Part shown: piece after piece, positions 10,366-10,891 of the stretch
Layout of the letters: every line of letters starts with the position of its first letter
How positions within the stretch are numbered: the first letter of the stretch is position 1
NCBI RefSeq assembly: GCF_003334355.1
Contig: NZ_QOWP01000055.1
Source: Escherichia coli
Lineage (GTDB): Bacteria > Pseudomonadota > Gammaproteobacteria > Enterobacterales > Enterobacteriaceae
DNA: 10,891 nucleotides
Strand: one strand, 5' to 3'
Translations under genes and position numbers: made by a program
Notes under the pieces: generated by a model
What the model was told of the DNA's origin: nothing
Seen by the model: only the letters and a program-made list of their open reading frames with translations
Database searches by the model: none

Positions 10366-10520
10366 TTCTCAATCTCTCGATGGCGCAGTGCAGCAGATGC
10401 CAGTTGTTCAGGCTGACGTATAAAGTATAAATAAACTGGTTCCAGTGTAAAGCCCCCACATTGATGGAATAAAAATCAAACAATAGATTGCTGGGATAAA
10501 ATACAACGCTTATTATTAAA

Positions 10521-10594
10521 AGCGGTTAGACAAATTAAATTTTAATGTTATGCAAATTTGTCAGATCACCATAATATCTCATTTAAAAACCGCT
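10521..10594. promoter_or_regulatory. Nested inverted repeats in an AT-rich intergenic region: possible early-operon terminator on the minus strand or an operator
   Basis: Outer arms agcggtt (10521..10527) / aaccgct (10588..10594); inner arms gacaaatt (10529..10536) / aatttgtc (10555..10562). On the minus strand the outer stem is followed by UUUAAUAAU. Confidence 0.3.
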
Positions 10595-10639
10595 GAAATA
10601 ACAACCCTATCAGGGTTAATCATATTAAGGTGAGTAAAT

Positions 10640-10726
10640 ATGGAAAACAACAAATCTGCACATTACGTTCCTTTTTTATCTGTAATACTTTTTGTTTTAT
10701 GCTGTGCGTGGGCATTATTTTTATAA
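10640..10726 (+). CDS. Candidate small hydrophobic peptide (28 aa, MENNKSAHYVPFLSVILFVLCCAWALFL)
   Basis: ATG at 10640 preceded by AAGGTGAG about 6 nt upstream; polar N-terminus then one TM-length hydrophobic stretch; TAA stop at 10724..10726. It is in a different frame from the listed 76-aa ORF (GTG at 10630), which has poorer start context. Confidence 0.25.
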   Translation: MENNKSAHYVPFLSVILFVLCCAWALFL

Positions 10727-10891
10727 AAATATTTACAGATGAAGTAAACCCGCCAATCAGGTTAACTGTGGCTGCGTTGAGGATGCATAATACATCAGAG
10801 GTTGCGGGGATTTCTCCCATAAGCGCTAACTTAAGGGTTGTGGTATTACGCCTGATATGATTTAACGTGCCGATGAATTACTCTCACGATA

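Follow-up and report, generated by a model that had tools for sequence, protein, structure and literature searches.

What does a short AT-rich interval of a prophage carry when no annotation marks it: regulatory DNA for its neighbours, or a gene of its own? The interval considered here lies in the window, by which we mean the whole stretch of 10,891 nucleotides (nt) of contig NZ_QOWP01000055.1 (assembly GCF_003334355.1) from Escherichia coli, and its setting is a Qin-like lambdoid prophage. A sequence-only reading of this DNA had described about 270 bp of AT-rich non-coding DNA upstream of a gene of 199 amino acids (aa) and, beyond it, a 28-codon open reading frame (ORF). The description of the interval holds: 274 nt of non-coding DNA separate the start of that gene, which codes for a DUF1367 protein, from the ATG at 10640, and the GC content over 10460-10760 is 26-31% against ~50% in the flanks. 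We propose that positions 10509-10726 would be a self-contained small-gene cassette of E. coli lambdoid (Qin-like) prophages, and we put the probability that the ORF is a prophage gene missed by annotation, autonomous and coding for a single-pass membrane peptide, at about 0.68. The predicted product of the ORF begins with a short polar head and ends in a single transmembrane (TM) helix, and this peptide probably inserts in the inner membrane. The cassette (~10509-10726) is made up of four parts:

10509-10557, plus strand: near-invariant non-coding block of 49 nt, the left edge of the cassette
10558-10626, plus strand: variable leader, a putative 5' untranslated region (UTR), with indels in 9 of 74 alignment columns
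10627-10634, plus strand: Shine-Dalgarno sequence AAGGTGAG, with a spacer of 5-6 nt to the ATG
10640-10726, plus strand: ORF of 28 codons and a TAA stop, MENNKSAHYVPFLSVILFVLCCAWALFL, with a polar head of 9 residues and a hydrophobic C-terminal segment of 19 residues

Coding signature of the 28-codon frame

The ORF and its strong Shine-Dalgarno sequence, both named by the sequence-only reading, are present at the positions given above, and an in-frame TGA at 10631 lies upstream of the ORF start. Homologous loci were gathered by means of the conserved non-coding block alone, and the sample is therefore unbiased by the ORF. All 157 complete loci have exactly 28 codons with zero indels and zero stops; together they hold 20 distinct ORF nucleotide sequences and 18 peptide variants. 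The Shine-Dalgarno sequence is kept in all lineages, where it takes the form AAGGTGAG, AAAGTGAG, AAAGCGAG, AAGGTGGT or AAGGTAGT. Conservation of the frame, by which the earlier reading had proposed to check its ORF, is found in every relative examined, and it comes with a coding signature. The variable sites are distributed over codon positions 1/2/3 as 8/9/17. The ratio of nonsynonymous to synonymous polymorphism (pN/pS) is 0.34 for the ORF frame, below that of each of the other five frames (0.39-1.36), and the ORF frame alone has no stop in any allele. The mirror frame has its wobble position in common with the ORF frame; its pN/pS is 0.39, 18 of the 20 alleles have stops in it, and no ORF of at least 20 aa is listed for it in the window. 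When alignment columns were shuffled, a pN/pS as low as the observed one or lower was reached 18 times in 1000, a stop-free frame 32 times in 1000, and both together once in 1000. Among 13 lineage representatives the divergence at codon positions 1/2/3 is 0.061/0.108/0.201, and it is 0.42 just past the stop. The leader has some indels, the ORF none.

The predicted product is equally constant in its architecture. The polar head and the C-terminal hydrophobic helix proposed earlier are kept in 18 of 18 variants, with a mean Kyte-Doolittle hydropathy of 2.3-2.7 over residues 10-28 in every one of them. Fourteen residues are invariant, and all substitutions in the tail exchange one hydrophobic residue for another. 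The peptide ends in ...WALFL and has no charged residue past position 5.

Two longer frames that overlap the ORF were considered as coding candidates and rejected. The 66-aa ORF on the minus strand (10620-10820), which starts at the junction with an insertion sequence (IS), has stops in 8 of 20 alleles and a pN/pS of 0.78; an earlier test restricted to codons 14-28 had given stops in 5 of 14 and a pN/pS of 1.59. The 76-aa ORF on the plus strand that begins with GTG (10630-10860) has stops in 4 of 20 alleles and a pN/pS of 0.61, and it also extends into the hok UTR and the IS.

Boundaries, mobility and distribution of the cassette

The edges of the cassette are seen where homology between loci ends. 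On the right, homology with phage 683R6 and with the L005/L012 types of locus stops 1-2 nt past the stop codon of the ORF. On the left, locus L119 diverges at ~10487 and locus L099 at ~10508, and in both of these the homology begins at the block. L099 has the cassette near a 992-aa tail-fibre-like gene and without a nin region; when its cassette was used as query against all E. coli genomes the homology was confined to the equivalent of 10510-10726, in 1176 genomes. The 164 loci combine two main left flanks with three main right flanks. In about two thirds of the loci the 3' end of the cassette abuts the hokD 3' UTR and terminator, and the cassette is also present in loci without any hok. K-12 Qin has rem at the cassette site instead and lacks the cassette altogether, and O157 strains match the whole region only over the initial 49 nt of the query (window 10366-10414). 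What makes the cassette recognisable is that its boundaries hold while its neighbours get shuffled. That the ORF belongs to a mobile cassette was absent from the sequence-only reading.

The small gene opposes the early-right operon, which runs from relBE-hokD towards the DUF1367, DUF1364 and Q-like genes, and it converges on the 3' end of hokD. Its position is an accessory-gene hot spot between the replication and the nin regions. This orientation against the operon and the position in the hot spot therefore point to a moron-like add-on gene with its own expression signals. Two properties by which morons are known are found here: presence or absence at one site among related phages (K-12 Qin, O157 and the varied flanks), and a base composition unlike that of the neighbours. 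The bor and lom genes of lambda are alike in these respects, being additions between conserved phage genes with a presence/absence polymorphism, a deviant base composition and an orientation independent of the operon. Classical morons differ in having a recognisable promoter and terminator, whereas the cassette shows only candidates, and Bor and Lom are far larger than 28 aa.

The region as a whole was found in 1368 of 5426 complete E. coli genomes, with 77-100% identity, and the cassette in ~1176 of the 5426, about a fifth, usually once per genome (median 1). Its carriers include the strains SE11 (NC_011415.1, about 1,492,624-1,492,846), LY180 of the W lineage (NC_022364.1, about 1,465,225-1,465,447) and B7A. 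The region is present in only four phage records, and pattern scans of IMG/VR gave more than 150 loci. A scan of one genome per species (100,044 species) had a single match, in E. coli. The two matches in a plasmid collection are both E. coli records of 4.8-4.9 Mb, which is the size of a chromosome. Searches of phages and plasmids with tblastn and with blastn set for distant matches gave E. coli only, a metagenome scan for alleles with another proline codon gave none, and a viral scan for alleles with CAC as histidine codon gave L099 only. Judged from these scans of species, phages, plasmids and diverged alleles, the family is therefore shallow and confined to E. coli prophages.

Annotation has passed the gene by. 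No annotated feature lies under any of the sampled matches, and the exact peptide sequences are absent from a collection of 15 billion proteins. NCBIfam gave sub-threshold matches at chance level only, the best being a Borrelia lipoprotein (E 0.21; 11.8 bits, where the cut-off is 35), and the PHROGs match, to an Rz-like spanin, was sub-threshold too (E 0.24). The peptide has no match in PADLOC or the PDB. Rfam had no hit at the gathering score in the whole window, and 10300-10891 gave chance-level matches only (E at least 4.5). General literature searches on prophage small proteins and type I toxins returned nothing on the locus.

A resemblance in build is seen with YnfS of K-12 Qin (29 aa, L006 623-712), which likewise combines a polar head with a hydrophobic tail that contains a Cys-Cys pair; it differs in being located downstream of cspF and in having no alignable similarity beyond composition.

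Signals upstream of the frame and on the minus strand

A number of observations weigh against a translated gene. Because T-rich DNA encodes hydrophobic residues by default, the hydrophobic tail is no proof by itself. The family has at most ~25% nucleotide divergence and ~6 independent lineages, and with such a shallow family the coding statistics rest on ~34 variable sites. The best-conserved part is the block and not the ORF (mean pairwise difference 0.078 in the block, 0.274 in the leader and 0.201 at ORF third positions), which means that some other constraint acts there and could drag the ORF along. A promoter-finding tool called no plus-strand promoter upstream of the ORF, a position weight matrix scan of this part gave weak sigma-70 candidates only, and on the plus strand a clean intrinsic terminator follows the ORF in the L002-type flank alone; the hairpin downstream of the ORF has the orientation that suits the convergent gene on the minus strand. 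Neither the literature searched nor the MetaRibo-Seq supplements contain the peptide strings.

Within the block the arms 10508-10521 and 10540-10553 form an imperfect palindrome. They never vary, and only the centre does. The block is a candidate for a promoter or UP-type region of the small gene, for the 3' body of an antisense RNA, or for both. Two weak plus-strand candidates start in it. One is TAGACA-16-TGnTATGCA at 10527-10554. The other is ATGCAA-16-TAATAT at 10550-10577, in which the TA..AT never changes and only the pair of bases between does, the pattern that a -10 element would show, and an A/T tract lies upstream of it. At 10526-10536, inside the block, and at the equivalents in L004, L012 and L099, most alleles have TAGATAAATT, and the window has TAGACAAATT. 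This is one base off the high-affinity motif of H-NS, tCG(t/a)T(a/t)AATT; silencing of the AT-rich cassette by H-NS would fit this putative resemblance.

Could all of this be purely regulatory DNA for the nin-like operon, with an ORF that arises from T-rich sequence and stays untranslated? The elements would be a leaky terminator on the minus strand, sites for H-NS or another regulator, and a promoter outside the minimal cassette:

10424-10451, minus strand: promoter-like TTTACA-16-TATACT, 10 of 12 consensus positions, directly upstream of the DUF1367 gene

This site is kept in four lineages, including L004 which has different downstream genes. The strong conservation of a non-coding block with invariant palindromic arms, the terminator-like hairpins on the minus strand and the poverty of plus-strand promoters all favour such an explanation. 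It leaves unexplained the codon-position bias, the lowest pN/pS of the six frames, the absence of indels, the retained Shine-Dalgarno sequence and the homology break just past the stop, and in L099 block and ORF travel together without the nin-side promoter or nin genes. The nested repeats, which might have served such a function, are not conserved. We consider this explanation unlikely.

Five structural elements of the leader and the minus strand bear on how the small gene might be controlled:

10566-10577 with 10622-10633, plus strand: possible helix of TCACCATAATAT and ATATTAAGGTGA that would sequester the Shine-Dalgarno sequence, 12 nt, 92% complementary
10646-10619, minus strand: antisense promoter-like TTTCCA-16-TATGAT over the start codon and Shine-Dalgarno sequence, predicted start ~10612
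10524-10507, minus strand: 5-bp hairpin CGCUU[UUAAUAAU]AAGCG then UUGUAUUUUA, through 10497, a candidate weak terminator
10529-10536 and 10555-10562, minus strand: inner arms GACAAATT and AATTTGTC of the nested inverted repeats (10521-10594), from an inverted-repeat search
10521-10527 and 10588-10594, minus strand: outer arms AGCGGTT and AACCGCT of the same repeats, from the same search

The nested inverted repeats were the main feature of the interval in the sequence-only reading. They exist, with the outer right arm at 10588-10594 where the text of that reading implied 10589-10595. The same search settings give 22 inverted-repeat pairs of comparable quality in 465 AT-rich nt, so the nested repeats are no more than chance would give. 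RNA structure prediction for the minus strand gives a z-score of -1.07, and 26 of 200 shuffles fold as well. What had been taken as one long hairpin turns out to be a pair of short AU-rich helices, set apart by a one-sided bulge of 25 nt. The suggestion of a tR2/tR3-like terminator or an operator fares no better: the bulge is large, the U-tract UUUAAUAAU is poor, and the structure is not conserved in relatives; a terminator scan calls the 5-bp hairpin at 10524-10507 instead. The perfect inner 8-bp arm is peculiar to the allele of the window, and the helices are broken in the L012 group and in L099, contrary to the expectation that homologous regions would keep them. Covariation controls are unremarkable (21/500 and 15/500 shuffles). 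The helices have 85.5% of cells paired on the minus strand versus 72.8% on the plus strand, and at one pair of the inner arms 11 of 13 lineages have a G.U on the minus strand, corresponding to A.C on the plus strand. Since the 5-bp hairpin shares bases with the outer 3' arm, the nested fold and the hairpin are mutually exclusive. We regard the inverted repeats as mostly incidental.

The helix around the Shine-Dalgarno sequence is the sole plus-strand helix kept by RNAalifold. Across 13 lineages 87.6% of its cells are paired, with 9 further pair types, and 32 of 500 shuffles equal this; its predicted conservation is suggestive and not significant. Two other leader structures were tried and rejected. 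The anti-Shine-Dalgarno partner in the minimum free energy fold, CUCAUUU (10579-85), is by alignment inspection not conserved in the L012 type; the helix that is kept is the TCACC one. The hairpin AACCCUAUCAGGGUU (10602-10618) upstream of the Shine-Dalgarno sequence has one compensated pair inside a close clade and is lost in the L004 and L012 types, so it is no feature of the family.

On the minus strand the antisense promoter-like site is flagged at the same position in L002 (TATGAT), L004 (CATAAT) and L099 (AATAAT), as a consensus match only, and it is not flagged in the L012 type, which has a spacer of 15 nt. The 5-bp hairpin is AU-rich and has 100% of cells paired in the 13 lineages; two pairs are changed on both sides, the G.U intermediates pair only on the minus strand, 36 of 500 shuffles equal this, and the U-run is absent in L099. 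The hairpin is a candidate for ending either an antisense RNA or read-through from upstream. Together these minus-strand features would fit, rather than demonstrate, an antisense RNA of ~110 nt.

For the autonomous membrane-peptide gene we picture a putative regulation as follows. Expression from the prophage would probably be independent of lytic transcription, and translation would probably be throttled by the leader helix that pairs TCACC... with the Shine-Dalgarno sequence. An antisense transcript that starts over the start codon and ends at the 10524-10507 hairpin may contribute. The peptide might perturb membranes in the manner of a toxin, or it might modulate a membrane protein of the host.

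A sharper form of this proposal, counted inside it, is a type I toxin-antitoxin module. ShoB/OhsC and Ibs/Sib encode hydrophobic peptides of 19-26 aa, ShoB with a polar head and a tail ending in ...LLFL; their leaders are structured, each comes with a small RNA that is antisense or divergent, and annotation missed them for years. The 28-aa peptide would be a membrane-damaging toxin. The leader, by sequestering the Shine-Dalgarno sequence, would keep the toxin mRNA untranslated, and a cis-antisense RNA of ~110 nt from TTTCCA-16-TATGAT, folded by way of the nested repeats and ending at 10524-10507 and its U-run, would pair with the leader and lead to a translation block or to cleavage.

Much of the evidence above can be read in favour of such a module. 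The peptide is small (<60 aa) and hydrophobic, has a predicted membrane helix, and resembles ShoB- or Ibs-type toxins in size and build. The antisense promoter-like site stands at one position in four diverged lineages, the terminal hairpin of the minus strand is fully paired and has two compensated pairs, pairing in the nested helices is better on the minus than on the plus strand, the helix over the Shine-Dalgarno sequence is kept in all lineages, and the neighbourhood is a hot spot with hokD, relBE, NACHT, AbiH, nuclease-methylase and S8 peptidase genes. Against it stand structure tests at 15-36 of 500 shuffles, values which trials of the tool itself reach without constraint, a terminal hairpin of only 5 bp, and the irregularities in L099 and in the promoter spacer of the L012 type. 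The peptide shows no similarity to any type I toxin model (NCBIfam; Hok, Ldr, Ibs, TisB, ShoB, DinQ, ZorO etc.), and the usual single copy of the cassette also speaks against it. Charged or bulky C-terminal residues are a feature of known toxins and were used as a search criterion for them (Fozo et al., 2010; PMC2887945). The C-terminus of the 28-aa peptide is purely hydrophobic, with no cluster of that kind. The criterion is not universal; ShoB and Ibs are not known to end in such a cluster.

Among the known systems hok/sok (hokD/relF) is the nearest in place, as the immediate neighbour of the cassette and a type I toxin locus of that prophage hot spot; Hok differs in having ~50 aa and an N-terminal TM segment, and the 28-aa peptide is not a Hok. 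ShoB/OhsC and Ibs/Sib share the short hydrophobic architecture (general features in PMC2887945), and they differ in that there is no sequence similarity and that those loci are chromosomal and repeated, whereas the cassette is prophage-borne and in single copy. Taking both sides together we find a type I module possible, though on the doubtful side. The full version, an as yet unrecognised type I family limited to E. coli lambdoid prophages with a 28-aa toxin and a cis-antisense RNA of ~110 nt, we hold to be slightly more doubtful still. The 3' half of its antisense RNA would be the invariant block, and the family would lie tail to tail with hokD in a toxin and defence hot spot; if it is real it might aid prophage maintenance or abortive infection.

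The same minus-strand features could instead belong to a trans-acting small RNA of the Hfq type with its core at 10557-10497, the plus-strand ORF being secondary or unused. Read on the minus strand the block, which is the best-conserved segment, is an AU-rich stretch, a hairpin and a U-run, like the usual 3' module of enterobacterial small RNAs, and a promoter-like site lies upstream. Rfam gave nothing beyond chance level, however, the fold z-score is -1.07, and the coding signature of the ORF is left unexplained, and we find this explanation quite improbable.

Neighbours of the cassette and meaning for E. coli

The genes and remnants around the cassette in the window are:

9766-10365, minus strand: DUF1367 gene, 199 aa, followed by DUF1364 and DUF1133 (Q-like) genes
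~10745-10818, minus strand: orphaned hokD 3' UTR, alignable with what follows hokD in K-12 Qin and in IS-free loci
10818-10891 (start 10818/10819), plus strand: left end of an IS186/IS421-family element, inverted repeat CATAAGCGCTAACTTAAGGGTTG, transposase ATG at 10873

Genomes free of the IS run straight into hokD, and ~10745-10818 is therefore hokD 3' UTR; in L003 the hokD stop is 11 nt past the point equivalent to 10818. A degenerate copy of the hokD terminator hairpin lies within this UTR at 10747-10763. The UTR is outside the cassette. K-12 Qin shares only this UTR with the window, and an unrelated rem module fills its interval between hokD and ydfU; we had considered that the window might hold a truncated rem and rejected it, the K-12 rem module being unrelated sequence.

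The IS is annotated as 'IS4-like element IS421 family transposase' in genomes with a 100% match. It sits 11-12 nt downstream of the hokD stop, so that the insertion severs the hokD toxin gene from its own 3' UTR and terminator, and the same junction is common to 8 other loci of the sampled set. The sequence-only reading had not noted this cut through the hokD 3' UTR. The 3' UTR and terminator region of hok mRNA holds the fold-back element. In K-12 hokC/gef an IS186 is found in the equivalent place, where it has been proposed to interfere with fold-back inhibition (PMC3562002).

Prophages differ in what they have in the slot past the cassette and hok (L001, L002, L007, L008, L009, L010). The contents of the slot include relBE, a NACHT-domain protein, an ATP-dependent nuclease with a cytosine methyltransferase, AbiH, an S8 peptidase with an FtsH-like protein, and DUF1971 and KilA-N genes. 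This pattern suggests a prophage hot spot for genes of defence and of toxin-antitoxin systems.

On the other side, loci exist that have the TTTACA-16-TATACT site with a 92-aa hypothetical gene, DUF968 and RusA downstream. An internal promoter for nin-region genes would be unusual in a lambdoid phage. Just upstream of the site are direct repeats of 2 x 20 nt, 10460-10479 ATTGATGGAATAAAAATCAA and 10487-10506 ATTGCTGGGATAAAATACAA, which are 80% identical with a spacing of 27 nt; the diverged L012 type has a recognisable repeat pair with equal spacing, ATAGCATGAACAAAC and ATAGCTGGTACAAGG. The repeats may be a binding site for a regulator. In strain AHB21 (L009 1751-2447) an IS1 separates the DUF1367 gene from the cassette, at about window position 10453; it removes the nin-side promoter-like site from the cassette and leaves block and ORF intact.

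Small membrane peptides of prophages can be toxins, phage exclusion factors or modulators of host membrane proteins. At 87 nt the ORF is under the usual length limit of gene callers, and if the peptide is made then about 1 in 5 sequenced E. coli strains has a prophage gene which annotation pipelines do not see. The case illustrates a route to such genes, namely boundaries that are kept amid shuffled neighbours. The claim is a modest one: this would be a new small gene of a familiar kind, with no new mechanism. A peptide that is on no list would be a blind spot for studies of lysogen fitness, for defence islands and for inventories of toxin-antitoxin systems.

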